64,000 nucleotides of DNA, taken from NCBI RefSeq assembly GCF_032062105.1, contig NW_026926521.1, positions 1 through 64,000 on the forward strand, read 5' to 3'. Positions within the stretch are counted from its first letter, which is position 1. Every line of letters begins with the position of its first letter. The stretch comes from Saccostrea cucullata (taxonomy: Eukaryota). The notes beneath the pieces are model-generated. The model did not search any database, was not told where the DNA came from, and saw nothing but the letters and a program-made list of their open reading frames with translations. This document shows, in pieces, positions 2,666-60,900 of this stretch. A program made the translations under genes and the position numbers.

Positions 2666-3387
2666 AGTGTAGATTCCTAATTATACGCGAGGAATTAATT
2701 TCCGCGTAATTTCGCGATAAGCATCGTTCGCAAAAAAAATATTTCTCGTTTTTATTTTTATGGTGCTGAAATCTATGTACATTTTTAAGGAATCACTGTC
2801 TAGTTCGTATAGTATGCCAGGGCATCAACGATAGTGGGAAACATGGGATAATTTGCATAACGGGCGAAGCCCGTTATGCTTAAATTATCCCATGTTTCCC
2901 ACTATCGTTGATGTCCCTGGCATACTATACGAACTAGACAGTGATTCCTTATATTTCCGTTTCACTGTGAAATAAAATTGTATATTTATATTTTTAAAAT
3001 GTTGACATAGATTTAAACTACATGAAGACTCCCTTGCCATTTTCCATAGCCCTCTCCCACTGACGTCAAACACAATTGCAGCCGCACGAGATTTTCATGC
3101 ATATTTGGCATCCTTCGCCTCAGACACAGAGACAGATGCGCACGAGATTTGCATGTATATTAAGCCTCCCCAACTCCTGACCTTTCGACCTGCCTAATTT
3201 ACATTCCGACAGGTTTATCAATAAATTAACTCCGCTAAATTTCAAAGAGTTATCACAGAGACAAAAATAAGAAATGGAAATATTACTTGATCAACCGTCC
3301 ATTCGCAAATTATAATTCTCGCGTTATGAAGTTAAAGAGCCAGTTCGCGGAAAAAAGCACTCGCGAAAAATAAGGAATTTACAGTAG
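2666..3387. mobile_element. TA-flanked MITE (CTGTA...TACAG type) interrupted by a hairpin element
   Basis: Left end tagtgtagattcctaatt (one mismatch to tactgtag); right end aaggaatttacagta; internal ttcgcg/cgcgaa subrepeats as in the MITEs at 31222 and 54301; interrupted at ~2781-3285. Confidence 0.6.
2781..3285 (+). mobile_element. Non-autonomous terminal-hairpin element A (Crypton-like, inferred)
   Basis: Near-perfect palindrome 2786-2951 (arms ~80 bp, apex GCGAAGC), then TATA-tttccgtttc whose inverted copy gaaatggaaa-TA lies at 3271-3282; no coding capacity. Confidence 0.6.
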
Positions 3388-3485: not shown

Positions 3486-5570
3486 AACAAGAGGCCCAGA
3501 GGCCACAGCGCTCACCTGAGCACATCGGCTAGGAAAAAGCACATATCAGATCAGAACGGAAAGTTTACTGAGGTGATGGTGGGGGGAAAGGGGGCTTGAA
3601 TTTTAACCCCCCCCAGGGGTTCATGATTTGAACTAGAATCTACACTACCTTAGGATGATTCCATATAAATATCACTGATCATGGCTTTGAAGTACTTGAA
3701 AAGAAGATTTTAAATATATTGGTTTCCCAATATATCCCTATGTAAAACTTGGGTCGGCCATTTTGGCCCCACCCTAGCCCAAGGAGTCATGATTTGAACA
3801 AACCTGAATCTACACTATCTGAGGATAATTTCACACGAGTTTTATCTTTCCTGTCTCAATGGTTCTTGAGAAGAAGATTTTTAAAGATTTTTCCTATATC
3901 TTCCTATGTAAAACATGGGTCGGCCATTTCGGCCCCGCCCTAGCCCCGGGGGTCATGATTTGAACAAATTTGAATCTACACTACCTCAGGATGATTCCAC
4001 ATGAGTTTTATATTTCCTGGCCCAGTGGTTCTTGAGAGGAAGATTTTTAAAGATTTTTCCTATATATTCCTTTGTAAAACTTGGGTCGGCCATTGTGGCC
4101 CCACCCTAGCCTGGGGGGTCAAGATTTGAACAAACTTGAGTCTACACTACCTGAGAATGATTCCACATGAGTTTCATCTTTCCTAACCCCGTGGTTCTTG
4201 AGAAATTTTTAAAGATTTTTCCTATATATTCCTATGTAAAACTTGGGTCGGCCATTTTGGCCCCGCCCTAGCCCCAGGGCTCATGATTTGAACAAACTTG
4301 AATTTTCACTACCTAAGAATGATTCCACATGAGTTTCATCTTTCCTGTTCAAGTGGTTCTTGAGAAGAAGATTTTTAAAAATTTTTCCTATATATTCCTA
4401 TGTTAAACTTGGGTTGGCCATTTTGGCCCCACCCTTGCCCCGGGGGTCATCATTTGAACAAACTTGAACCTACACTACCTGAGGATGATTCCACATGAGT
4501 TTCATCTTTTCTGGCCCAGTGGTTCTTGAGAAGAAGAAATTTTTAAAGATTTTTCCTATAAATTCCTATGTAAAACTTGGGTCGGCCATTTTGGCCCCAC
4601 CCTTGCCCCGGGGGTCATGATTTGAACAAACTTGAATCTACACTACCTGAGGATGATTCCACATGATTTTCATCTTTCCTAGCCCAGTGGTTCTTGAGAA
4701 GAAGATTTTTAAAGATTTTTCCTATATACTACTATGTAAAACTTTGATCGGCCATTGTGGCCCCACCCTAGCCTGGGGGGTCAAGATTTGAACAAACTTG
4801 AGTCTACACTACCTGAGAATGATTCCACATGAGTTTCATCTTTCCTAACCCCGTGGTTCTTGAGAAATTTTTAAAGATTTTTCCTATATATTCCTATGTA
4901 AAACTTGGGTCGGCCATTTTGGCCCCGCCCTAGCCCCAGGGCTCATGATTTGAACAAACTTGAATTTTCACTACCTAAGAATGATTCCACATGAGTTTCA
5001 TCTTTCCTGTTCAAGTGGTTCTTGAGAAGAAGATTTTTAAAAATTTTTCCTATATATTCCTATGTTAAACTTGGGTTGGCCATTTTGGCCCCACCCTTGC
5101 CCCGGGGGTCATCATTTGAACAAACTTGAACCTACACTACCTGAGGATGATTCCACATGAGTTTCATCTTTCCTGGCCCAGTGGTTCTTGAGAAGAAGAA
5201 ATTTTTAAAGATTTTTCCTATAAATTCCTATGTAAAACTTGGGTCGGCCATTTTGGCCCCACCCTTGCCCCGGGGGTCATGATTTGAACAAACTTGAATC
5301 TACACTACCTGAGGATGATTCCACATGATTTTCATCTTTCCTAGCCCAGTGGTTCTTGAGAAGAAGATTTTTAAAGATTTTTCCTATATATTCCTATGTA
5401 AAACTTGGGTCGGCCATTGTGGCCCCACCCTTGCCCCGGGGGTTATGACTTGAACAAACTTGAATCTACACTACCTGAGGATGCTTCCACATGAGTTTCA
5501 TCTTTCCTGGCCCAGCGGTTCTGGAGAAGAAGATTTTTTAAAAATGCCATTAATTTTTAACAAATTCATG

Positions 5571-10245: not shown

Positions 10246-10288
<43 letters not shown>

Positions 10289-12505
10289 CTCATACGTGTT
10301 GGTGATACAGGCCGTTGGATAAACTTGTGCTTTATCAACGGGTAGATGCTTTATCAATAGCACTTCCGGTTTTGACACGATCCCTCGCTTCAAGATTTTA
10401 TTTTATTGAAACTTTTATTTGTGAAAATTGTTGCCCTTATAAAATGAATGTTAAAGAGTAGTTATATCGTAAAAAGCAAGAAAAAGACTGGTATATGTCA
10501 AAGAAGTGTCTTATTTTATCAAGGAACCCGTTGGCTATTTGAAGACAGATGTTAACACCCCCCCCCCCCCTTAAATCGTTTTCGGAGAAAGTAAAGCCTA
10601 CCAGTTAACTTGTTGTTATGAGACTCCTTTGACATCTTTAACAATGCTTTCTTATATTATACTACGTATGCCTACCTAGTAATCTAGGTGTAACTTACCA
10701 TGGATCAGCAAACAATCTAGACAAAGTCTAGGCCCCTAGCCTTGCCTAGCACGATTTGTACTGTCATCGTAAAAAGAGTTGATTTTCACGATCCCCATAG
10801 TCCTAACAACTTTCAGTCAGAAGTTCGTTTGATGTACAGCTCCAACAATTGTCACATGATGTTTTCAAAGACACAGATATCAACGGTGCTACGTCATCAA
10901 GTTATACGTCATCAATTTGATTTTGGCAGTCATTCATGTAGTTTCGCAGGGGAAGTCTCAAAGTTTTGTTAAAATTAAAGTCGTATGAGATAAATAGAAC
11001 ATCTATAATTGTGTGATTTGATATTGGCTTTATCCAACTCGTTGAAATGGTGTATATTCGCTCGGCAAGCCTCGCGAATATATACACCATTTCAACTCGT
11101 TGGATAAAGCCAATATCTATATACCTGATGTAATTAAAAAAAAATCATACAGAACTGGTTTAATATTACATAAAGTAAAAGTTTATGAAATAAGAAGTTT
11201 TTCCCTTAATGAAGGTTAATATAATACATGTATTTATCTCATACGTGTGGGTGATACAGGCCGTTGGATAAACTTGTGCTTTATCAACAGGTAGATGCTT
11301 TATCAATAGCACTTCCGGTTTTGACACGATCCCTCGCTTCAAAATTTTATTTGAAACTTTTATTTGTGATCCCTATTATTGCCCTAATAAAATGAATGAT
11401 AAAGAGCGATAACATCGTTAAAAGCAAGAAAAAGACTCGTATATGTCAAAGAAGTGTCTCATTTTATCAAGGAACCTGTATTGGCTACTTGAAGACAGAT
11501 GTTACCCCCCCCCCCCTTTAAATCGTTTTCGGAAAAAGTAAAGCCTACCAGTTAAGTTGTTGTTATAAGATTCCTTTAACATCTTCAATAATGCTGTCTT
11601 ATATTATACTACGTATGCCTACCTAGTAACGTAGGTGTAACTTACCATGGATCAACAATGAATCTACCAGTAGGCCCCTAGCCTTGCCTATCACGTTTTG
11701 TACTGCCATCGTCCAAACGAGTTCATTTTCATGATCCAATGGTCCTTACAACTGTCAGTCAGAAGTCCGTTCGATGTAAAGCTCCAGCAATTGTCACATA
11801 ATGTTTTCAAAGACGCAGATAGCAAAAATTCTAAATTTTGAACAAGATCTACTTTCTTTCGAGGGATGTCAACATCAACGGTGCTACGTCATCAAGTTGT
11901 ACGTCATCAATTTGAATTTAGCAATCATTCATGTAGTTTCGCAGGGGAAGTCTCAAAGTTTTGTTAAAATGAAAGTCGTATGAGATAAATAGAACATCTA
12001 TAATTGTGTAATTTGATAGTGGCTTCATCCAACTCGTTGAAATGGTGTATATTCACTGGGCAAGCCTTTTGAATATATACACCATTTCAATTCGTTGGAT
12101 AAAGCCAATATCAAATCACACAATATAGATATCCTCTATATATAAATATAGCACTTCTATTTTCTCAGACACATCCAATTTGAAATACAAAGTTACATCC
12201 CTTTTTACAAAATGATCAATACCTAAGTAGGAGTTAAATTTCTCTATCTCTGTAAGATTTCCTCTCATTGTGAAGTCCCCAGCATGAAGAAGCACGTCTC
12301 CTGCAGGCATACGTAACCCTGACCTCTCAATCTTCCCGTGGGTGTCAGAGATACAGACAAACCTGATCTTGTCGGGGGTGACAGGGGTGACCGGGTCTGG
12401 GTGGGGACATCGGATGTGCTGCTGGTGGATCCGAATTCTCTCCCAGGCCTTTGTTGGATTTGCTGTGTCTTTGTCAACCGTTATTTCTTCACTGCCTGAC
12501 ATCAT
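7235..12505 (-). CDS. MPPED1: Metallophosphoesterase domain-containing protein (MPPED1/2 co-ortholog), 5 coding exons, ~297 aa
   Basis: Exons 12505-12223, 10091-9863, 9374-9259, 7704-7594, 7389-7235 join in phase at GT-AG sites; motifs ISDTH, HAGDFT, AGNHD, THGPP, FGHIHE, FINAS. Confidence 0.92.
10284..11117 (-). mobile_element. Terminal-hairpin element B, copy 1 (hairpin end truncated)
   Basis: Starts tttatctcatacg, inverted copy cgtatgagataaa at ~10982-10994, then hairpin ~11020-11117; highly similar to 11233-12133. Confidence 0.7.
11233..12133 (-). mobile_element. Terminal-hairpin element B, copy 2
   Basis: Same architecture; hairpin ~11996-12130; carries an extra ~47-bp segment near 11820-11868 absent from copy 1. 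Confidence 0.7.
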
Positions 12506-12769: not shown

Positions 12770-12987
12770 CTAGACTGGGATTCAAACCCGAGCTCCAGTC
12801 AGGTGCTCTACCAACTGAGCTACCGCTTATCAAATCAGTCTGACTACCCCATTCCTCCCTCCTGAGGGAGGAATGGGGGTAGTCAGAGTGATTTGATCAG
12901 TTTAAGGACGGAGGAATGGGGTAGTCAGACTGATTTGATAACCGGTAGCTCAGTTGGTAGAGCACCTGACTGGAGCTTGGGTTTGAC
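12770..12987. repeat. Inverted pair of tRNA-derived SINE head fragments
   Basis: ggtagctcagttggtagagcacctgact (A-box-like) at ~12943 and its reverse complement at ~12797-12824; B-box-like gggtttga; third partial copy at 13156-13180; no complete cloverleaf. Confidence 0.55.
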
Positions 12988-24379: not shown

Positions 24380-27300
24380 TTAATGGCTCCCTAGAAACAA
24401 GGGATCTACTGAAGCCAGCTTAGCAGACAGAAAGGCGTGGATGCAGTAAAGCAGGGTGTGGAGACTGGAGCACTGGATCTCCTACAAACACAACCAACAA
24501 ACAGTCAATATAAAATAGAATAATAATGTAATATGATGCTTCTGTCCCATTTCTGTTGGGATAAAGGTTAGTCAAAACTCCGGCCCTTTTGGCTAGTTCT
24601 CAAAAAATTATTTTGTACCTGTGTCAAAATTAATTAACCAATCAAATTATGCAGTGTGTTTTATATGTTTCAAGCTTCTCTGTCTCTAAGATGTGTGGCT
24701 TGTTGTCAGACAAGATTCAAATTATCTACTTAAAAAAAAATACTTTGAAAAATTATTTAGGTTTAAAGAATAATTATTCATTATGACAATCTGTGATTGA
24801 ACATTGTTCTGATTTTGTCCTTACCCTGGTTTCTGTATTGTTGGAATTCTCCGTGCTGTGGAAGTGCAGCCTCAGTTTGGATCTGTTATCATCTGAGGAA
24901 CCTTTGAGTTGGGAGAATTTATAAGTCCACATGTAGCTCTATGAAAAAAGAAAAAAATGGCCTTTTTTTCTTTGCTTCACATGACACTAAATCAAGAGAT
25001 GTTTGTAAAAAATATTGGATTTCATTTAAATATGTGCAACCTCTACACAGAAAATGAATGGAAACTGATGGTGGACCAACAGGCACCCATATAGACTGAC
25101 AGCAGCAAAGCAATACGCCCTCCCTTCTTTGGAGGGGGGGGGCATGGTTATTAGGGTTTTTTTCTGGGGAATTAATCATCTTTATACATACCTTTAAAGT
25201 GTTGTCATACAGAGAAAATCCAGACTCGAGATCCAGGGTTAATCCAGACAGCTGTCCCCTCCAGGTACAACCAAAGGTTTTACTCTACAATGAAATATCA
25301 ACATGTAACAAAAATCTCTTTTATATGCTAGTTATACTGGTGTGATTGTGTTTACCTTCATGCTTGTTATACTGGTGTGGTTATTTACCTTCATGCTAGT
25401 TATACTGGTGTTGTTTTCCCTTCATGCTTGTTATACTGGTGTGGTTATTTACCTTCATACTTGTTATACTGGTGTGGTTGTGCTTTCCTTCATGCTTGTT
25501 ATACTGGTGTGGCTGTGTTTACCTTTATGCTTGTTATACTGGTGTGGCTGTGTTTACCTTTATGCTTGTTATACTGGTGTGGCTGTGTTTACCTTCATGC
25601 TTGTTATACTGGTGTGGTTGTGCTTACCTTCATGCTTGTTATACTGGTGTGGTTGTGCTTACCTTCATGCTTGTTATACTGGTGTGGTTGTGCTTACCTT
25701 CATGCTTGTTATACTGGTGTGGTTATATACCTTCATGCTTGTTATACAGTGTACTGGTTATTTACCTTCATGATTGTTATACTGGTGTGGTTATTTAAGA
25801 AATAAACAACGTTATTTAGTGAACATGGCGTTATGAATAGCAATTGCTCTGCTGGCATATTCCATGATGCGCGCTAGCGCATCATGGAAAATATGCCAGC
25901 AGAGCTATTACTATTCATTACGCCATGTTCACTAAATAATCGTTGTTTATTACTTATATTTGCATTCTTTGATGTTGACAAGAATATCAGAGGAAATCCT
26001 GACTTACATAAGGACGCAGCTTCTTCTGTCTTCAGTAAAGAAAACCATATGGCTTTAAAATCAATACACCTGATCAATACTCCTTTTCTCTAATAAATCA
26101 CAATTTATAAAGTATTTCCCTCTCAAACACAGTTATCTGGATACAAGCAGCGCCGTCATCACATTCTCTTAATTTTTGTTTTGATGCAGTCGTGACGTCA
26201 TCAATCAACGTTATTGAAATCCTCTGACAAAAATCAATAATTTAACACTATGATAAAGATGAGAATGCTTTTATTATTATTATTACTCCAGTATGCTTTT
26301 CTGTGATTTTTTTTGGGTACTTTTTCTATTTATTTTTTCTTGAAATAGATATAGATCTACTATAGTTAAAGAAATTTTCTTTTCTGAATGTTATTACCCA
26401 AGTTTGAAGAGTTATCGTTCTTTGTACAAGTATGCATGATACGAAAAAATAAAAATATGGAGTTCTATTTAATTTTTAAAAAGTTTTATTTTACAATTAA
26501 ATACATTTACCAAAATTAAATTTTTAAATATATCAAACAGCAATTTCAAATTGTTCTGAATTCCTTTTTTTCCAAAAAATATTATTAAAAACTTATATTT
26601 AGTCCTTTTACGAAACATTTCATATATATACTTCTCAACACGGTAATTAAGTAGTAGAGCTTGTTCTACACGAGTGAGATAGAGCACTTGCACTCATAGT
26701 GGAGGCAGTTGCGTCTATAGTCATATGAACGCAGTTGAGGGCTACATGTTCATAGTGGAAGAGAGCAGTGGATATGCAAATATTTACATTTATGCTTGTT
26801 ACACTGGTGAGGTTATATTACCTTCATGCTTGTTATACTGGTGTGGTTGTGCTTACCTTCATGCTTGTTATACTGGTGTGGTTGTGCTTACCTTCATGCT
26901 TGTTATACTGGTGTGGTTGTGCTTACCTTCATGCTTGTTATACTGGTGTGGTTATATTACCTTCATGCTTGTTATACCAGATTGGCTGTGTTTACCTTCA
27001 TGCTAGTTATGCTGGTGTGGTTGTGCTTACCTTCATGCTTGTTATACTGGTGTGGTTATATTACTTTAATGCTTGTTATACTGGTTTGGCTGTGTTTACT
27101 TTCATGCTTTTTATACTGGTGTGGTTCTTTACCTTCATGCTTGTTATACTGATGTGGTTTTTATACCTTCATGCTTGTTAGAGTTGGGTATTGCGAGTGA
27201 AAACCATATTGCGATATATTGCAATATTTATGTTGAATATTGCAATATACTGCGATATATTGTAGATGAATTATCATTAATAAATTTGTGCAGAAAGTTT

Positions 27301-27499
27301 AAAATGCTGTCAATTTCAAAGACTATTTGAATTTATCTATAAATTTTAAAGGGGGGGGGGGGATAAGACATTAATCGCACACAAAATTATAATAACTTTT
27401 AATCGAAAACCAGGTAAAAAATTAAAACAAAATGTATTCATTTGATGTATTTTCAAATTGAAAAAAAAGTTTATGCATAGTATATTCTTTATACGTTTC

Positions 27500-27533
<34 letters not shown>

Positions 27534-30500
27534 GGTGTTTTATTGAAATAACATAAAATGGAACTTAATGATTAAAACAATACATATATACTATATAGAA
27601 ATTTTATGTGGTCACAAAATAAAATTAAAGCCAGAAAGAAATTGTGACCTAATTTCGGACGTTTGGTGTTTTAGTCTGACCCGACCTAATTTCACATTAT
27701 GACATACGATCAGGAACGGCATTGGCCTATTTCTATTGTTTTAATATACATGCTACTGGTATAGCATGAAGGTGTTTAAAATGGCATGAAACTTGTTAAA
27801 GAATAATAAAAAACACTGTATCAAGTGAAAACATGGATGGCCATTTACTTGTAATATGTATCTTGAACTTAACATTCATCGTCGATCGTGTAGATTCCAT
27901 GAGATTTTGAGAACCACAGTACACATGGTAAACACCCTGTAGAAATGTTTTATGTATTTTCCTTTTTAATAATTTTATTTAAAAGTCTTTTTATTAATTA
28001 TTTATTTTATTTTAAAGTAAGAAATTTAAAATTGACAGTGAATGAAAAGCTTCCCCCCCTCTCTCTCTTTTCTCTCTATCTGCCTCTGAAAGCTGACGAA
28101 GTATTTTTTTTTTACTAGATTGAAAAGGCCTGGGGAAGTTACAAGTATTATTTCAGCAGTTTCTACAATACAGGAGTTTTTTATATATTTTATAAATATC
28201 GTGAAATACCGGTATCTGACTTTCATATCGCGATATATTATCGTGATGGATAATACCGCAATATACCGATATACCGGTAATATTGCACAGCCCTAATGCT
28301 TGTTATACTGGTGTAGTTGTTTTTCCCTTCATGCTTGTTATACTGGTGTAGTTGTTTTTCCCTTCATGCTTGTTATACAGAGGTGTAGTTATTTGCCTTT
28401 ATGCTTGTTATACTGGTGTGGTTGTATTACCTTCATGCTTGTTATACTGGTGTGGTTATTATACCTTCATGCTTGTTATACTGGTTTGGTTGTGCTTACC
28501 TTCATGCTTGTTATACTGGTGTGGTTGTGCTTACCTTTATGCTTGTTATACTGGTGTGGTTGTGCTTACCTTCATGCTTGTTATACTGGTGTGGTTGTGC
28601 TTACCTTCATGCTTGTTATACTAGTGTGGTTATATTACCTTCATGCTTGTTATACTGGTGTGGTTGTTCTTACCTTCATGCTTGTTATACTGGTGTGGTT
28701 GTGCTTACCTTCATGCTTGTTATACTGGTATGGTTATTATACCTTCATGCTTGTTATACTGGTGTGGTTGTGCTTACCTTCATGCTTGTTATACTGGTAT
28801 GGTTGTGCTTACCTTCATGCTTGTTATACTGGTGTGGTTGTGCTTAACCTTCATGCTTGTTATACTGGTGTGGTTGTGCTTACCTTCATGCTTGTTATAC
28901 TGGTGTGGTTGTGCTTACCTTCATGCTTGTTATACTGGTATGGTTATTATACCTTCATGCTTGTTATACTGGTGTGGTTGTGCTTACCTTCATGCTTGTT
29001 ATACTGGTGTGGTTGGTTTTGTACCAGGCTTTCTCCAGTTGGAGGAGATCAGAGCGGCTCTCGGTACTCAGGTAGAACTTTTCACCTGTCCCACAGTGTA
29101 TGGTGCAACAATGCTGGCGATCATCCAGAAGTTCAACATCCTGACAAAAGATACATTATTTTTTATGTAAACACAGCTGTAAAAAGAATACCATTCACCT
29201 AAACAGTTTAATTCTGGTATCTTCAACACAGGTACATTGCAGCTTCTTTATCATGGATATGTATCAAAAATTTCAAATATTTTGAAATTTTTCTTTGCTC
29301 CATCAAGTTTGAAAAGATTTGACTGTTTTGGCCTCAATCAAAGCCTTTTTCAAGAATCCATGGTTTGTGAAATTACTTGCACACTATAAAACACGCATAA
29401 ATATAAGTTTTTAAAATATAAACTAACTGAAGAAAATTTACTTTCTTCAACTTAAATACCTTGAGAACCTTAAACATGCACTCATAAACTTTGAACACAG
29501 TGTCACAGCGAACCCAGTCTCTTGTCTGCATCTAAAAATAACAAAAAAGAATTCAATTTACATCTTTTACAGAAGAGCTGTATCTTTGTGCTATAGGTAA
29601 CAACTCCCAATCATAAAAAAATTCATATTAATAGAGTATTCAATGATGAATATCATATGCAATATCAGAAACTATAAAATATATTGAAAGGACTTACTGG
29701 TGGAACATCAAACAAGCAAATTTCAGCTCCTTTTAGACATAGAAATTTTGGTTTCCAGGCTTGAAAGTGCCGCATGGGAGAGACTCTTTCTTGGGTCCAT
29801 GTCATGTGAACAACCTGGTAAAAAATAAATATTTTTCAATACATATTCTGTAAGATAGATTACACGTTTTAAAAGAAATTGTGACTGATGTTAGCACAAC
29901 TTACTTGATCTTCTGGGATCAACAGTCTGTTGCTCATTTTTATCTGAAATGAAAATGTTCAATTCATATATTTTTCATCTGACACAGTGAAAACCAGCAC
30001 TGTATCATACAACACAAGCTAAAATTCAACACACCGCTCAAAGCATCTGAATGAACAGTAATTTATAATTCACATATCAACATTACAGTAGCAAATACAC
30101 AATATTGTCATACCATATGAGTGAGCAATGCTGAAATATTATTGGTTATTGCTCTTATCCAATCAGCCAATGATCTACTGTCTTCACATTGTACAACTCC
30201 TGTTGAAGCAGAGTTCACACCAACCACCTCAAAGGCATTTGTTCTGAAAGATTCAACATATATTACAGTGTACAGTCAAATACAACCAAACATATTCTAT
30301 ATCAAAGCAATTTACAGGTATAATAAAACACTTATGCCCCCTCCTCCAAATAATTGGAAGTCTAAGGGGCACAACTCTGGTCAAAATAGCCTGATCGTAC
30401 CCAAAATAAAACTTGACCTAGATATTCTCATGAAAAATTCTTTGCAGAGGTTGCACATATTGAAATAAAATGTGGTATACAGATTTATTATAAAAATATC

Positions 30501-33500
30501 TAGGTCAAGTTTTGTTATGGGTACGATCAGGCCATTTCTGACAGAGTTATGCACTTTCGACTTTAAAAAATTCCAATTATTTGGGGGAGGGGGGCAGTGT
30601 TTATAAATATCTCTCGTTAACATTCAGTATTGTATTCAGAATTATTTCATCAAAGACATCCCAGTGACCTGAATACAGTACTTCATCTCACCTGAGTTTG
30701 TCTGTTCCGGGGATGAATCTGGACAGGTAGGCAAACAGTAAGGGGATAGTAACATAGACCACCCACTGTCGCTCGAGGTCAGGGATGGACGGAGACTGGG
30801 AACTCTTTATACAAAGAACACAAATGAGAAAGTGAATTCTTAACTTACAATATAAAAGACAATCTGATATAATTTTTACCTTTTGCATATGTAAAAAAAG
30901 AAAACTTACAGGTTTTTGGGCAATCATTCATGTTTTTTTTTTTTTTTTAGAGAGAATTAATTAATACATGCCTTATAGCCTGTTATGCATACATTAGTAT
31001 TCATTCATAAGAGTCCATACAGCAAAAAAACTTTAAAATTTTTCTAAATTCTATATGTTTGATACTTACTCCTGGAGAACTTGCACTGCTCTGTGACTCT
31101 AAAAATGAAAGAAAAATGATAATCATATCTATACACATGCAATAATAAATTAAAATTTCATACCACGGTAAGTTTCAAAATTAACAAGCATACACATGTA
31201 CATGCTGCAAAAAATGTAATACTGTAGATCACTAAATTTTCGCGACACCATATTTTCACGAGATAGTCCTTGACTCTTGATTAGCGAAACAAAATTTTCA
31301 CGAATTGTGGTTATTGCTCTATATAATCTTAAGGAATACTATTATACGCGAGAATTAAATTTTCGCGAGCACACTGTCTCACGTAATTATGCGCAAATGA
31401 AGTTCTCGCGAATAAAAAGTGATTTACAGTATACAGTGTGGTCTGCAAATATTGATTTTTTTTCTTCAATTTCCTATAGACAATATATTATTGTTGAAGA
31501 CCTTGTCTCAGGAAAAAATTATAATACTTACCCCTTTTCAGGAAAAGTGCAGCTGGTTTAAAGTATCTGACTGTCAAGATAACAGTCTGTCCTGCTAATT
31601 TCAGTGTCTCAATGACTGCATCATGTTCCATTTTATCACATTCTATGTCATTTATCTAAAACATTAGATAATCCATTATGGATTAAAATCTTTAATGAAT
31701 TCAAGACACTGGGAAACAAACCAAAGCAATTGTTCCTATGTATTTTTAGTTGGTACATGTAAATACACACTGAAGACAGTAATCATGAATCCAGATACAG
31801 TATTCAAATCTGCAAAGATTGTTTATTCCTGACAATGAAAAGCAATTTCTTGTAGCTAATTAAAAGCCTACCTTTAGAATAGCATCTCCAATCAGTAGTT
31901 TGCCAGAATTTGATGCTGGAAGATTGGGGGGCATTTTTGATATGAATACAGGAAGGCCACAATCTGCACCCCCCTTAAGACCGAGTCCTAGCCCCCCGGA
32001 GTCATCTCTCACCAGACACACCTCACGAACCTGTTGAAATTCTCATCATTCAGTACATTGAAATAAGCGTCCATATAAACTTGATATCAGCTGGATTTGG
32101 GGAGTTAACTCTTGGTCCAAAACTCAATGTTTGACTTAAAAGCAAGTTCTAGAAACACTACCTATGCTGACTTAAAAGCAGATCAATGGCAAATTTCTCC
32201 AAAATAATCTGAACAAAACAACCATGCAGCTAAAAGTAAATTGATTTATATGAAAGCATCTATGGTATTATAGACTTAAAATTGTAATTTGATATATGTA
32301 GGAGTAAATATGAAAATGCTTTGGAATTATTATAATGATATACAAGTGGTGCTAATGGCCAAATAGTGTTAGGAACTCCACATAAATTACCTCATAACAA
32401 TTAAAGAAATAGAAAACTGTCTTTGTGTATTTGTCACTGTAGTGTTCTGTACATTTACCTGGTTAAGCATCTCATCGTTCCCATTGCTGTCAGTTGACAC
32501 GATTTCCTCCCTCAGAACACTCAGTGTGTCCGTTGTTAAGACAAGCTTGGCTGTTCTGGGTTTTCCTATGGAGTCAAGGATGGTTACTAAACCAGTCTTC
32601 TCCTGGAAAATAAATCATATATTTAGAAGAGTTTCATTTTAATGCAGATTAAAAATTCACTTTTAAATTGTTTAATGTGAAATTTTTGGCTTTTAAAAAT
32701 TTTTTTTTGGGGGGGGGAGGGGGGTATATCTTACTTTTTGTCTTTGAATTTGAAATTTGTACAAAAGATTCAATTTGCTCAGAGACAAAAATGGGCAATG
32801 ATTTACTGAGCATCATATTGAGTGAATAACAAAGAAAGGGGGAGGGGCCTAAGTTTACTTTTATTGTATGAAAAGTATACATGGCAGAAATGTTGTACAA
32901 TAAATAAAAAAGATATATATATTAACATTTATAATGATTACAGAGATTTCTTTCTTGATGCATGTATTTGGTACTTTAGTTTTGAGAATAGATAGTTTTT
33001 GATGGACCTAAATTTAGCAAAAGTTACCTCCTGTTGGTCGCCATATTGGGGGTCGACTCGGTGAGTTTTCCTCTTTGTCTTACCAAGTTTAAGAAAATAT
33101 AGCAGAAATATTTGGTGGAAAATCTTTATTAAATAATTTTTTTTTAATAAAGGAGGCTTCCAAAAATTTACATACTTCAGAAAAATAATTATTCCTAATT
33201 CAAAATAGCAAATATAAAAATTTAAAATTGGTTGAACAATGAAGGAATATAAACATTTGGACCTCCAGTTTGGCGGCCAATGGGAGGTAACTTTTGCTAA
33301 ATTTAGGTCCATCGAAAACTATCTATGGTTAAATAACATATACATGTAATAAAAATTTTGTTACATTATCAAAATCATTTCAAATGGTATATTGGTTTGA
33401 AAGTTTGACTTAGGTTTGTTCTCAGTTTATGATGTTAAAGCCTGTTTTTATACACATGTAACCCTTCAAAGTTAAAATCTATCACTTCATAAAAATTTGA

Positions 33501-54015: not shown

Positions 54016-54300
54016 TACAGATTCTTCAGCTGAACCATCTCCTTCTATGTAGAATATGCAAATTTAAACCTGTATTTTTGTGTTTCCTATGTGATTTTTG
54101 TGCATGGAGAATCAGTTTGTTTTGAATGGCATTACACAATGTGACAATCAAAGAAATCTAAAGTGCTTCTTTCGATGAAGCTGAATAAGTATTTCAAATG
54201 TGTATATGTGATTATAAGTGTTATAATTATTAATGTTCAAAGTCCTTGTTAATTACCTCTTAGGTAAAGGAACCTGTAGTTATACAGAGTTAAAGATATA

Positions 54301-54508
54301 CTGTAGATCACTAAATTTTCGCGACACCTTATTTTCGCGAGATAGTCATTGACTCTTGATTAGCGAGACAAAATTTTCGCGAAGTGTGGTTATTGTTCTA
54401 TATAATCTTAAGGAATGCTATTATATGCGAGAATTAAATTTTCGCGAGCACACTGTCTCGCGTAATTACGCAAAAATAAAGTTCTCGCGAATAAAACATG
54501 ATTTACAG
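54301..54508. mobile_element. 208-bp TA-flanked MITE, copy 2
   Basis: Near-identical to 31222-31429; similarly built TA-flanked MITEs at ~37800-37988, ~50436-50670, ~51317-51548. Confidence 0.85.
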
Positions 54509-55658
54509 TATTGTTTACTATTTAGTTCCTAATTATCAAATGAAAGGCACATTATTTTATTTTTTTGGGGGAAAAAATCTTATGCTCTTTATACTTCATT
54601 TCATTAGGACTTACTATTGGTCATTTGCATATCCAGTAAAAGAACCAAATTCGAATTAAAAACAGACTCCTTTTCCACATAAAAGTAGAAATTCCAAGAT
54701 AATTTTGATTTTTTAAGTGTTTTCCAGAAATCTGCATTTTCATTGATGTAAATATAGGATAAGCCTTTTATTCAAACAGTCTTTGTTTTACAATTTACAT
54801 ATTTTATTACAAATAATCACTTAATCACATTTTAACATTTTCTGATTAAATTCCCATTGAAAGGATATAAGACCCTGTTAATAAACCCTGGCCATTTTTT
54901 ATTTTTGTTCAGTGTTCATTTTTGTGCCATAGATTATCTTCATTAATTTTTCACCTTACGTATGTCTGTAATCTTATTTAACCCTGCTTTTAAGATGCCG
55001 GAAAGCAATAAATTTTTTAATTTTTTTGAAAAATTTTAAGTTTCAAAAGCATAGTTATTGTTATTTCTAAAAATGCCTCAAGTTGTGGAAATTTAGCTTG
55101 TTAAATCTTGCTTTTGATGAGGTATGTGTTATGATATTTTTTTGAACATATGTGTAAGTAGATGTTTAAGATTGTCTATTTACTGTTGATTTTAATTTTG
55201 TGACAATTTTTATGGTTGAACCATGAAGCAAAATGTTGCAATATTTTTTTTTTTTTTTTACTTCTGATTATTATTTTAAGGAAATACTGTAGGTATTTGT
55301 ATACCCAAACAATGCAGGTATAATTTTAGTATGTTTTCTAAAAAGAAAAATTCATAATAGGTTTAATATAATTTGTAGTCAAGTATCAAAATTGAAGTTT
55401 GAATGCACTGTCAGTATCTAATTTTATTTGTACATAGCTCATACACTTATCCATATGACTTTAAAAGTCTTTGGTGCCTGTACAATTATGCAATCACATT
55501 TAATATTAAAATATCAAATTAATGAATGCATTGTTTTTGGATTTTTTGATAACTAATATGTAAGAGAAAAAGGGGAAAATGCATGACTAGACTGGGCATC
55601 AAGCTGAGGACCCTGCTGATATTCGCGGAAACTATAACATTCTGCTCCAATGAAGATA

Positions 55659-56996
55659 CGCGGGTTGTTCGATATGTATTGTGTACCACAGCGCGATAAC
55701 GCCTTGCACGATTTCGTCGATATTTATACGCCTGGATAACTCTATTCAATACCTTGCCAACAGTATAAACATGAGCCTTCATCTACACATGGTTATAAAA
55801 TAATCGTCATTTCAGTAGAGCCATTCGTTGACCACTGTTGTAAAAATGGTTGGGAAAATGGGTGAGAATATTGAAGAAATTAGAGCTTATATAAAAGTTC
55901 GCACAAAACTCGGTAATTCGGTAAAGCAGATTTTTACTGAATTGGGGGAAGTTTATGGGTCTGATAAGGTATCTTATGAGACAGTTCGTAGGTGGAGACA
56001 GAAATTTCTGACTGGTACAGAGTCCGTCAAAGATGCAGCAAAATTGGGTCGACATGTGACTGTATCAGGCAAGACAAATGTCTCAAAAGTCAAGGAAACA
56101 GATGAAAGTGATGGCACTGGTACACGATTTGTGATATTGCCAAAGCTGTTGGCATATCGCTATCGCGGTTGCATTTCATTTTGAAGCGTATTTTGAAAGT
56201 ACGAAAAATTTCTGCCAGATGGATACCCCATATATTGACAGATGACCATAAAAAGGTACGAATACAAACCGCTAAGCGACTGCTAAAAATGTTTCCAAAC
56301 TTCAATCAAAGACAGTTTGCAAACATAGTTACTGGTGACGAAACATGGGTTCACTATTTCGAACCAGTAAGAAAAGTTGGAAAGAAATTATGGCTAACCA
56401 AACACGTAGAAGGCCTGTAGTTGCCAAAAGGACAATGAGCACAAAGAAGGTCCTTTATTGCATATTCTTCTCTTGTGATGGTTTAGCCTGTATTTATTCC
56501 GGTGCCGAAGGGCAAAAAAGTATTACAGGTCGGTATTACCGAGATGTTGTACTGAAAAAGCTCAAGAAATATTATCAGAAACGAAGTCCTGTGTCGGAAT
56601 TTAGGCATGTTCGCCTTCTTCATGATAATGCTCCATCACATACATCTGAGCTTGTGAAGCAATTTTTGAAGTCTGAGAAGGTAACCGTCTTGCCACACCC
56701 ACCATACTTTCCGGATCTAGCACCATGCGACTTTTTCCTTTTTCCAAAACTTAAAAAGTTCTTATCTGGTCGCTTTACAAGTCCCGACAGGCCCTTGGCT
56801 CAGCCGTCAGTCAGTGCCTCAGAGGGTATACCTAAATCAGCGTACCATGACGCATTTCAGAAATGGATTCAGAGATTAAAATTGTGTATTTCAAATCACG
56901 GAGAATACTTTGAAGGGATATAATGTCCATTGGACTATTTGAATCAAATGCTTTTGAGATATCGTACAATACACAATACATATCGAACAACCCTCG
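55659..56996 (+). mobile_element. Full-length mariner (DD34D) transposon, 1338 bp
   Basis: 27-bp TIRs cg(c/a)gggttgttcgatatgtattgtgta with TA target duplication. Confidence 0.95.
55846..56923 (+). pseudogene. Frameshifted mariner transposase
   Basis: Split over three ORFs; motifs WIPHILT, TGDETW, HDNAPSH, YFPDLAPCDF with 34 residues between the second and third Asp. Confidence 0.92.
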
Positions 56997-57967: not shown

Positions 57968-60900
57968 ATGTTGTTGTATGGAAGGTATGGGTAACCAGGG
58001 CTTGATCAAAACGTTTTAAATTATCTGTGCCTTTAATCATTGATTTAAGATAAATTTAAACGTCAGTGTAATTTTACAGACAGCTAATGCAAAATGTAAA
58101 TATTACAAGTAGCTTGTATAGTAATAATGATGAAATGAAACTAAAAGGAAAATTTAATATAAATCACATAAGGTACGTAAATGAATTTAACAAAATATGA
58201 ATTTTGAAAATTGAAATATAATGAAAGATTTAAATAAGCTACGTCGACGTCATTACAAGAAAAACAAAGCCATTTTTGCTTGTAAAAATATATGCTTTAC
58301 AAATAAGATATACATTGTATTTATGTGTAATATAAGCAATACTTAGTCTTCAGAATGAATGATTGTTCACTTTTGTTTTACTTAAAACCAAGGATGGTTC
58401 TAGTGGATGTTCCACTAAGAATAAATGTATTTAAAAATTATGTTACAGTTTCCTTACAATTTTGTTTGGGATCCTTTCTAAAAGCCATTTTGTTCAGTGC
58501 AACTTTAACGAGTCCAATCAGACTCTCATCAAGAGCATACTCAATGAGCACCAGAAACAAGTAGATGACAAACTCAGTGAGCACCAGAAACAAGTAGATG
58601 GAGAACTCAATGAGTACCAGAAACAAGTAGATGGAAAACTCAATGAGCACCAGAAACAAGTTGATGGAGAACTCAATGAGCACCAGAAACAAGTAGATGG
58701 AAAACTCAATGAGCATCAGAAACAAGTAGATGGCAAACTCAATGAGCACCAGAAACAAGTAGATGGCAAACTCAATGAGCATCAGAAACAAGTAGATGAC
58801 AAACTCAATGAGCACCAGAAACAAGTAGATGGAGTACTCAATGAGCAACAGAAACAAGTAGATGGAGAACTCAATGAGCACCAGAAAAAAGTAGATGACA
58901 AACTCAATGAGCACCAGAAACAAGTAGATGGGCACAACAGAAACAAGTAGATGGAAAACTCAATGAGCACCAGAAACAAGTAGATGGAGAACTCAATGAG
59001 CACCAGAAACAAGTAGATGGAGAACTCAATGAGCACCAGAAACAAGTAGATGGAGAACTCAATGAGCATCAGATACAAGTAGATGGAGAACTTAATGAGC
59101 ACCAGAGACAAGTAGATGGAGTACTCAATGAGCACCAGAAACAAGTAGATGGAGAACTCAATGAGCACCAGAAACAAGTAGATGGAAAACTTAATGGGCA
59201 CCAGAAACAAGTAGATGGCAAACTCAATGAGCAACAGAAACAAGTAGATGGAAAACTCAATGAGCAACAGAAACAAGTAGATGGAGTACTCAATGAGCAC
59301 CAGAAACAAGTAGTTGGAGAACTCAATGAGCACCAGAAACAAGTAGATGGAAAACTCAATGAGCATCAGATACAAGTAGATGGAGAACTCAATGAGCACC
59401 AGATACAAGTAGATGGAGAACTCAATGAACACCACAAACAGGAAGATGGAAAACTTAATGAACACCGGAAACAAGTAGATGGAAAACTCAATGAGCACCA
59501 GAAACAAGTAGATGGCAAACTCAATGAGCACCAGAAACAAGTAGATGACAAACTCAATGAACACCAGAAACAAGTAGATGGCAAACTCAATGAGCACCAG
59601 AAACAAGTAGATGGCAAACTCAATGAGCACAAGAAACAAGTAGATGACAAACTCAATGAGCACCAGAAACAAGTACATGTAGATGACAAACTCAATGAAA
59701 TGACACAGATGTTAACAAGAATGGAGCAGAGAATAGTCAAAATAGAGAGAAGTATATTAAAAATTCAGACTCTTCAAGAAAAGGCAGAACGGGCAGATGA
59801 ACAATTGGAAGATAAAATTCCAAAATCAACATCCTTTCAACAATCACAGTTTAAAAAACGAAATAATGTTTTAGAAGGCAGAAAGGAATTTGAGACAAAT
59901 TCATACAAAACACGACCTAAATGCACTAAAACAGGAAACGTCGAACCTTGGTTTCAAAGGTATCATAATGTAAATGCAGGAGGGAGAGAAAGAAAATTGG
60001 AAGACATGTGCAAAAAGAAGACAGTCAGTGGAAAGACACAAACGTGTTGTACGTAACAAAACTTTTTCATGAATGTACGAAATGTTTTGATCTGATTATA
60101 CGTGTGTTGTATAATACGATAATATTTTAAATTTATGTTTTTGCAGATGTATTTGTTCTGGAATTACCTCTGTTACAATCAACTCCAGTCAACATTTTTG
60201 TCGCCATCAGTTGTATCTGTACTTGTTTCTGCTGTTGGTACTGTTTTTGCCGTCGTACGAAGCAAGTACTGGATTCCCCTTCGCTGAAGTCTGATTTGCA
60301 ACACACAAAACCAGAAGTGAAAATACAGCCTACAGTAGTAAGTAGTAAATGATGACTGATTAGATTATTGTTGTTTTACACTGAGTCGGCAATGTTTCAG
60401 GCATAGTTCGGCAGTAAAAAAGCTCTTATGCTAAATACTGCATTAACATGTTGCAATATTTATTCATTGACTGATGTTTAAAAGTTAAATAAAAGTTAGT
60501 TATCACAATGTCATATAGAAGAATAATCCAGTTTGAATTATAATTATTTACTTGGCAAGACCAAAAAAACAATACAGTATTTCTATTTTCAACGATCAAA
60601 CCCGAGAAGTGTTTAAATCTCGAAGACTCCCTCTGCATCATTAGTTTTGATGAGCAATCTAGCAGGGAACACCATCTACCAATGACGAAAGAAATCACAG
60701 AATCCGGTGAATGGGCAGCTAAACTTCAAACTAAGAGAGTCACCGTTAAAGGAGGTTATAGCGACCAGATCAAGGATATGATTCCACCATCTAAGGTATA
60801 ATATATTATACTTGCTGACTTTGTTAAAAAATATGTGCATCGTCATTCATTCCATTACTTTCATGCCCTTAATCTAGGATTTTTATGGTTATAGGTTTTT

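Follow-up and report, generated by a model that had tools for sequence, protein, structure and literature searches.

Terminal hairpins and internal mirror sites in CryptonA-type elements suggest a folded single-strand route of transposition

Introduction

What kind of mobile element interrupts a 35-bp minisatellite of Saccostrea cucullata, and in what form would it move? The window (the whole stretch of 64,000 nucleotides analyzed here) consists of animal DNA that is rich in AT and includes host genes split by introns. A sequence-only reading of it had described, at this minisatellite, an insertion (here element A; Table 1) with a hairpin at one end and, in its interior, an inverted copy of its own end-to-end junction, and had proposed a non-autonomous element that a tyrosine recombinase would mobilize by way of a folded single-stranded intermediate. 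An autonomous Crypton encodes a tyrosine recombinase; element A encodes none.

The cuts made by tyrosine recombinases fall at the edges of a 6–8-bp spacer that separates two inverted arms (PMC3212892). The DUF3504 domain marks the CryptonA group (PMC13465315), and Crypton-A is named first among the DNA elements with new insertions in an oyster (bioRxiv 10.64898/2026.02.10.705023). The available text of PMC13565253 gives Crypton transposition as lacking experimental demonstration, with a double-stranded circle as the standing model. CryptonA elements and their non-autonomous derivatives are described as having neither terminal inverted repeats nor target duplications (available text of PMC3212892). 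Animal Cryptons are reported without terminal repeats, and a hairpin, a mirror, or a spacer and target rule goes unmentioned in the available portions of PMC3212892 and PMC13465315.

Anatomy and borders of element A

The insertion lies inside the minisatellite, as had been claimed, and its empty site can be read: excision of the insert brings back the 35-bp register, the unit starts then being 33, 35, 33, and 34 nt apart. The inserted element first placed at 25792–26786 is real, and its limits are re-read from this register and from the loose ends of aligned contigs as those of a 989-bp non-coding element (Table 1). The hexamer TATTTA is indeed found at both borders (25792–25797 and 26781–26786), and no inverted repeat joins the two ends of the element, in keeping with the reported absence of conventional terminal inverted repeats. 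A MITE of a DDE transposon has terminal inverted repeats and a target duplication of fixed length, neither of which is seen in element A.

The ~80-bp hairpin at the left end is also as described, with arms at 25796–25872 and 25877–25956, and the interior does mirror the junction: reverse-complemented, the mirror is identical to the far end. A circle of the element is predicted to fold across that junction, with pairing probabilities between mirror and far end of 0.76–1.0 on either strand (0.6 for the terminal T) and with a 2-nt bulge in the mirror–junction duplex. The core of this duplex had been read as 6 against 4 nt. The 2-nt difference in length is real, because the empty-site register fixes it; for the core itself, a 7-nt spacer opposed to a 5-nt spacer is the better reading, with the cut after 25794 and after 26783. 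Since the loose-end evidence consists of 24 of 654 entries, the exact cut register of element A should hold to within about 2 nt.

Two numbers describe how far the mirror could be a coincidence. A free search in 1.5 kb gives a 10-nt match with p=0.12, which is not significant alone, and when the match is required to start at the border and at the foot of the hairpin, chance produces it in 0 of 20,000 cases (analytic value 2e-4). Three TA-N8-TA sites are present in the reconstructed empty array, the target of element A among them. None of the 32 frames of at least 22 aa in the element has a Pfam hit, and its longest stop-to-stop frame is 74 aa. The same minisatellite is also split by a second, 1.1-kb insertion (27181–28295), the ends of which look like those of a short-inverted-repeat element and which we take to resemble hAT-type MITEs.

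Table 1. Positions in the window of element A, its parts and flanks, and elements B and C.
Feature	Positions	Strand	Remark
Element C	2785..3283	+	Unrelated sequence, same design; cut placed by analogy
Element B1	10285..11121	-	Second family B copy; hairpin end decayed, end approximate
Element B2	11234..12139	-	Unrelated sequence, same design; target TA-N8-TA
35-bp minisatellite, left part	25325..25794		
Host bases TAT	25792..25794	+	5' of the inferred cut; target preference T-A-N; from contig ends and the rule in five sister-design families
Element A	25795..26783	+	989 bp, non-coding; from empty-site register and contig loose ends
7-nt spacer	25795..25801	+	Element-encoded spacer of the predicted recombination site; register inferred
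Outer hairpin arm	25802..25872	+	First bases are the right arm of the predicted site
Apex loop GCTA	25873..25876	+	C-G closed, GNNA type, as in recombinase locus L040
Inner hairpin arm	25877..25950	+	
5-nt spacer	25951..25955	-	Internal mirror site
Mirror of far end	25956..25965	-	10/10 bases
AT-rich interior	25966..26773		Differs between copies; replaced in another organism
Far end	26774..26783	+	Forms the left arm of the predicted site, with the cut behind its last base
Host target spacer (7 nt), then TA	26784..26792	+	With 25792–25794 forms the TA-N8-TA target
35-bp minisatellite, right part	26784..27180		

Element A as a repeated family

Contigs that match the window or part of it are present in 24 sequencing runs, one of them an oyster metagenome with a small share; this run and a 166-bp satellite of the window point to an oyster source. 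Contigs of four runs were aligned (X1, 3,764; X5, 1,232; X8, 4; X11, 1,174); X8 was too thin and was left aside, and summed depth was not taken as copy number. In X1 and X5 the contig cover spans element A, the cover of the flanks being about a hundredfold or more lower, and element A is a high-copy repeated family. Run X11 comes from a different organism. There, cover is strong on the hairpin and mirror and appears again, more weakly, at the far end, and 27 contigs run past 25966 into another interior, every base of the mirror being retained. What is conserved in the element is thus the hairpin together with the complete mirror. The sequence-only reading depended on the internal junction copy being conserved across copies, and contigs of related copies from other organisms have kept it. 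Moreover, frequent contig variants at 25906, 25910, and 25919 convert mismatches of the window copy into pairs. Complementary variants at 25817 and 25934 were discounted as covariation, as contigs of one arm may align to the other.

The contigs also bear on the borders. In X1, 41 contigs depart after 26783 into mixed flanks (agreement 0.46), which is the best-supported right border among 24 of the 654 loose-end entries; among the same 24, the left-border entries of X11 start at 25790–25793 (8, 17, 14, and 12 contigs). Departure after 26783 falls inside the TATTTA repeat. These entries suggest that the hexamer is not a core repeat of the whole family, and its presence at both borders probably reflects chance at this insertion site. 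A direct repeat of 4–6 bp at both ends, which characterizes Cryptons of the fungal/oomycete type, is found in the window copy of element A and is absent in five sister families of the same design. None of the 15 joint entries listed, out of 91, is a junction contig, a count that is no evidence of absence. An 18-nt pattern of element A gave one viral and ten metagenome matches, lone stretches of 18–22 nt without a hairpin that were set aside as chance, and its two-arm pattern gave no match in the genome contig collection.

Elements of the same design in the window

Elements B and C have no sequence relationship to A and also possess a terminal hairpin, the inner arm of which continues into a mirror of the far end. 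The mirror of B2 comprises 12 contiguous bases, and element C has a hairpin with a GAA loop, a 7-against-5-nt spacer, and a mirror of 10/11 bases. In the unanchored search the chance of the mirror is p=0.002 for B and p=0.05 for C. A, B1, and C together have 69 short frames, and nothing recognizable as a coding remnant is found in any of them; the patterns of family B have 0 and 2 viral matches. The window has 158 frames of at least 62 aa, and in 150 of these no partner encoding DUF3504 was found.

Some features of the surroundings are recorded here in their own right. B1 and B2 are arranged head to tail (10285–12139), ~110 bp apart and with no exact junction. Element C appears nested in an inverted-repeat MITE (about 2666–3387) that is related to 31219–31432 and 54298–54511. 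The motif TGACGTCA or TACGTCA, presumably CRE/ATF-like, is present in the interior of A (26193–26200), C (3061–3068), and B (10890–10896). Elsewhere, the window carries a 166-bp satellite of 11.5 copies (3631–5538), which we assume to resemble the oyster Cg170 satellite, a tRNA-like sequence arranged as nested inverted repeats (12782–13183), a frameshifted mariner-type transposase (HTH_48, DDE_3; 55819–56920), and a 33-bp tandem repeat of 35 copies (58539–59679) that overlaps a 381-codon open frame. Further hairpins are found at 12782, 30337, 32981, 20255, 47520, 19103, and 22058.

Recombinase-bearing elements of the same design

A degenerate recombinase motif was searched in the genome contig collection and gave 13 loci (L014–L026) spread over four assemblies titled bacterial (G001–G004); in viral contigs it gave no match. 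Matches to DUF3504 number 34 in the 16-Mb assembly G001 and 2, 5, and 2 in the other three. The tandem arrays, repeat families, and DUF3504 matches suggest that the motif-bearing DNA of these assemblies is mis-binned animal-like DNA, likely host contamination in a species-representative collection. Long hairpins are found near most of the DUF3504 genes, upstream of the gene in most loci and downstream in four (L028, L029, L030, and L040).

Five families in G001 have the design of element A, and three of them (L025, L016, and L035) include a copy with an internal DUF3504 gene, the recombinase-bearing elements being 1.7–2.0 kb long. The element at L025, with 1,991 bp, has an intact frame of 527 codons in which Pfam identifies DUF3504 (E 9e-35), Phage_integrase (E 5e-11), and QRICH1, that is, recombinase-type domains only. 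Its empty site is represented by L063, and five short derivatives have ends identical to its own; short derivatives with the ends of a recombinase-only element are a likeness to CryptonA. The H, R, and H of box II and the Y are invariant in 8/8 aligned recombinase frames, and of 6,618 candidates 842 are homologues of the L025 enzyme at E<=1e-30. The predicted structure of this enzyme (mean pLDDT 80.7) is nearest to that of Cre (Z 17.5, rmsd 3.6, 281 aligned); IntI4 scores lower (Z 13.4). The top recombinase match of its sequence profile is IntI4 (E 1e-7), over 66 positions only.

How close is element A to these elements? Its predicted recombination site agrees with that of family L035 at 17/21 bases (shuffle p 2e-5), and its hairpin has no significant match in G001–G004, the single 21-nt hit having E 0.06. 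Longer, recombinase-encoding elements of the same layout exist in G001 as DUF3504 elements; none with A's own ends was found among the window frames covered. Since no recombinase-encoding partner with those ends was found, the link between element A and a recombinase consists of the design and the 21-nt site. Element A shares with DUF3504 elements the end design, including the 7-against-5 spacers, and it shows the CryptonA traits of having no terminal inverted or long direct repeats and, given its mixed flanks, no true target duplication. Taken together with the site match, these features make it very probable that element A is a non-autonomous CryptonA-type transposon.

Spacers, targets, and the insertion footprint

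The borders of the five G001 families were set by variation from copy to copy, that of C by analogy, and those of A from loose ends. When the ends are joined, the order is arm, cut, 7-nt spacer, and arm; in the internal mirror these arms flank a spacer of 5 nt. With the length left free from 2 to 10, this 7-against-5 arrangement is the best fit in 8/8 families (A, B, C, and the five from G001), a count that is partly conditioned by the choice of copies on hairpin similarity. The rule in eight families is what identifies the 6-against-4 core of element A as a 7-against-5 spacer. The counts for footprint and spacer are not independent, given the relatedness of the families and the origin of four fifths of the data in a single assembly.

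Blind searches for the mirror gave an equivocal picture, in part because stem feet were misplaced and because some elements were truncated or of another kind: in 19 single DUF3504 loci the inner side exceeded all shuffles in 7 and the host side in 5, and in an earlier test 6/23 loci reached p<=0.05. Together with the free search in element A, these tests are what would speak for the far-end match being chance and the hairpin a fold-back accident in an ordinary repeat. That reading is hardly credible and already largely refuted by the anchored test, the agreement of 8/8 families, and the conservation seen in X11.

The footprint was read from 30 insertions, 29 of them distinct (L076 and L081 have the same flanks, and both were counted). 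Excluded were L071–L075, L078, and L082, in which the far end is interrupted or falls outside the stretch; L083, a nested pair; the duplicates L084 and L087; L051–L054, L061, L062, and L064–L066, for which no far end was established; and L094–L096. In the target, A is found at position -2 in 30/30 insertions, T at -3 and T at +8 in 23/30 each, and TA at +8/9 or +9/10 in 20/30. The target agrees with the element spacer at 2.17 of 7 bases on average, against 2.11 in the null (p=0.40). A repeat at the border measures 0–1 nt in 19/30 insertions and never more than 5; ordinary target duplications, which the sequence-only reading had named as evidence against itself, do not occur in the sister families. 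The hairpin end holds the element's own spacer in 30/30 insertions.

This footprint is the one that would be expected if only one strand were exchanged. A duplex circle with two exchanges over unlike spacers would leave host-derived spacers at the hairpin end of some copies, and 0/30 are seen. A single exchange of the hairpin-first strand followed by replication would leave the footprint as seen, and this is the integron route (PMC3458562). In two head-to-tail pairs (L070 and L083) the predicted junction is present base for base; such pairs could come from a dimer circle or from insertion of one copy at the end of another.

Strand bias of the hairpins

Mismatches of the tandem GA/GA type and loops of the GNA or GNNA type stabilize folded DNA strands. 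In 22 hairpins, the hairpin-first strand carries 25 tandem GA/GA mismatches against 4 TC/TC, and 13 GNA/GNNA loops are on that strand against 3 on the other. This bias holds for either direction of the gene. Fold energy favors the hairpin-first strand in only 13/22 hairpins and so picks no strand, and the hairpin of element A itself has no GA/GA pair. At two loci of known orientation the loop motif is on the other strand. In L016:2608–2670 and the hairpin of L027 the apex loop motif is on the strand opposite to that of most families, perhaps as a result of inversion of the hairpin tip.

The strand bias bears on the form in which the element moves. A CryptonA-type element might instead travel as a double-stranded circle, in line with the standing model (PMC13565253), with a strand-biased exchange or a cruciform, the mirror being an accessory binding site or one that is active only on extrusion from supercoiled DNA. 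Bacterial SE elements are biased toward one strand without folded sites (available text of PMC9345347), attC sites also fold as cruciforms (PMC8946536), and the folded single-strand intermediate is here a prediction from sequence. A double-stranded circle nevertheless leaves two observations unexplained, namely that in 8/8 families a distance of exactly 5 nt separates the mirror from the foot of the hairpin and that GA/GA mismatches favor one strand, while in the cruciform version the folded strand is used all the same. We consider movement as a double-stranded circle unlikely.

Comparison with known systems

The geometry of element A has a counterpart in DIRS-1, a tyrosine-recombinase element with a single-stranded stage, which has an internal stretch near one end that is complementary to both ends (PMC7192593). 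In DIRS-1 this region is essential, and the cDNA is single-stranded (PMC7192593). Inverse PCR was unsuccessful for DIRS-1 (PMC7192593), and other self-pairing junctions may resist it as well. Element A could accordingly be pictured as a non-autonomous DIRS-type retroelement, served by DIRS in trans, with the mirror as the internal complementary region used after reverse transcription. However, element A has no inverted terminal repeats and no genes for reverse transcriptase, RNase H, or recombinase, and its match is imperfect (7 against 5 nt) and runs on into the 80-bp hairpin. Moreover, the recombinase elements of the same design are short, the L025 frame has no domains other than those of the recombinase type, and the hairpin can be on either side of the gene. 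In the DIRS model, furthermore, the circle is made double-stranded before insertion (PMC7192593). A DIRS origin is therefore very unlikely.

Helitron2 or Helentron elements also have a short asymmetric inverted repeat beside a hairpin and no target duplication (available text of PMC3627910). On the minus strand of element A, the 10 nt at the terminus can pair with a second copy located immediately upstream of the hairpin, as in these elements (PMC3627910), and a target duplication is absent here as well, so that far end and mirror could be the asymmetric terminal inverted repeat upstream of the 3′ hairpin of a non-autonomous member. Spacing, hairpin size, and the HUH enzyme of Helitron2 differ: its inner repeat is 20–30 bp from the end, with hairpins at both ends (PMC3627910), whereas the mirror of A is 161–171 bp from the end (~160 bp), before an 80-bp hairpin, and no far-end hairpin is found among the 25 longest of 80 pairs. 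The same design also travels with a tyrosine recombinase gene, and the site of A matches that of one such family. A Helitron2 affiliation is, if anything, still less probable than one with DIRS.

Bacterial SEs resemble the present elements in having a tyrosine recombinase, a circle made from one strand, and an element end that is carried into the junction spacer (PMC9345347). They differ from element A in having four genes, 19-bp terminal inverted motifs, few target sites, and no attC-like fold (available text of PMC9345347).

The closest parallel in mechanism is offered by folded recombination sites. The attP site of CTX phage is a fold-back recombination site at which one strand is exchanged. 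It is named in PMC9345347. In integron attC cassettes, imperfect fold-back yields a site in which the arms are paired and the spacer is not (PMC3458562, PMC8946536); exchange involves a single strand, and the junction is then resolved by replication (PMC3458562). In contrast to attC, the site of the present elements would arise only after the ends are joined, the elements are eukaryotic, and their TA-N8/9-TA target is loose. In its predicted fold the L025 enzyme is closer to Cre than to the integron integrase (Z 17.5 against 13.4).

A model for transposition

Because the same design is found in recombinase-carrying Cryptons of another animal, a folded single strand is the likely form in which these elements transpose, as it is for bacterial integron cassettes. 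By analogy, element A probably moves as a folded single-stranded circle, with a DUF3504 tyrosine recombinase acting in trans. The original proposal of a non-autonomous element, a tyrosine recombinase, and a folded strand finds support in the DUF3504 elements of the same layout and in the one-strand footprint.

Starting from the observed anatomy and repetition of element A and from the borders, absent duplications, and target preference of the recombinase-bearing families, the folding, circle formation, and replicative resolution can be pictured as follows. The hairpin-first strand would be exposed and fold, and the mirror would act as a splint that holds the far end beside the hairpin end. The recombinase would then cut this strand at both borders and join its ends into a circle, the folded junction of which would be the recombination site, its two arms paired and its spacer 7 against 5 nt. 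In the next step, one strand would be exchanged with a double-stranded TA-N8/9-TA target without homology between the spacers. Replication would finally resolve the junction.

On balance, we lean toward the view that animal CryptonA elements, which are abundant and polymorphic in oysters, follow an integron-like route that is new to eukaryotes, with a mirror-splinted 7/5 site, a Cre-like enzyme, and a target that can be nearly any TA-N8/9-TA sequence, without homology or duplication. A search found no description of hairpin-plus-mirror ends or of a single-strand route for Cryptons, and subscription journals or Repbase notes may carry one; the end design of element A was thus not found in print, and the element itself may already be catalogued. 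Eulor5/6 are assigned to the Cryptons in PMC5753468. Their ends may be laid out in a similar way.

Implications

The rule yields exact Crypton borders, the position of the cut, a target consensus, and a predicted strand for animal elements whose ends have so far been undefined. If the model is true, Crypton ends would be definable by structure, which would serve curators, and the enzyme would be a compact, homology-independent integrase for single-stranded donors. The predictions of the rule are testable with oligonucleotides and one intact enzyme (L025/P0001). Eukaryotes would, in that case, possess an integron-like single-strand route of their own.
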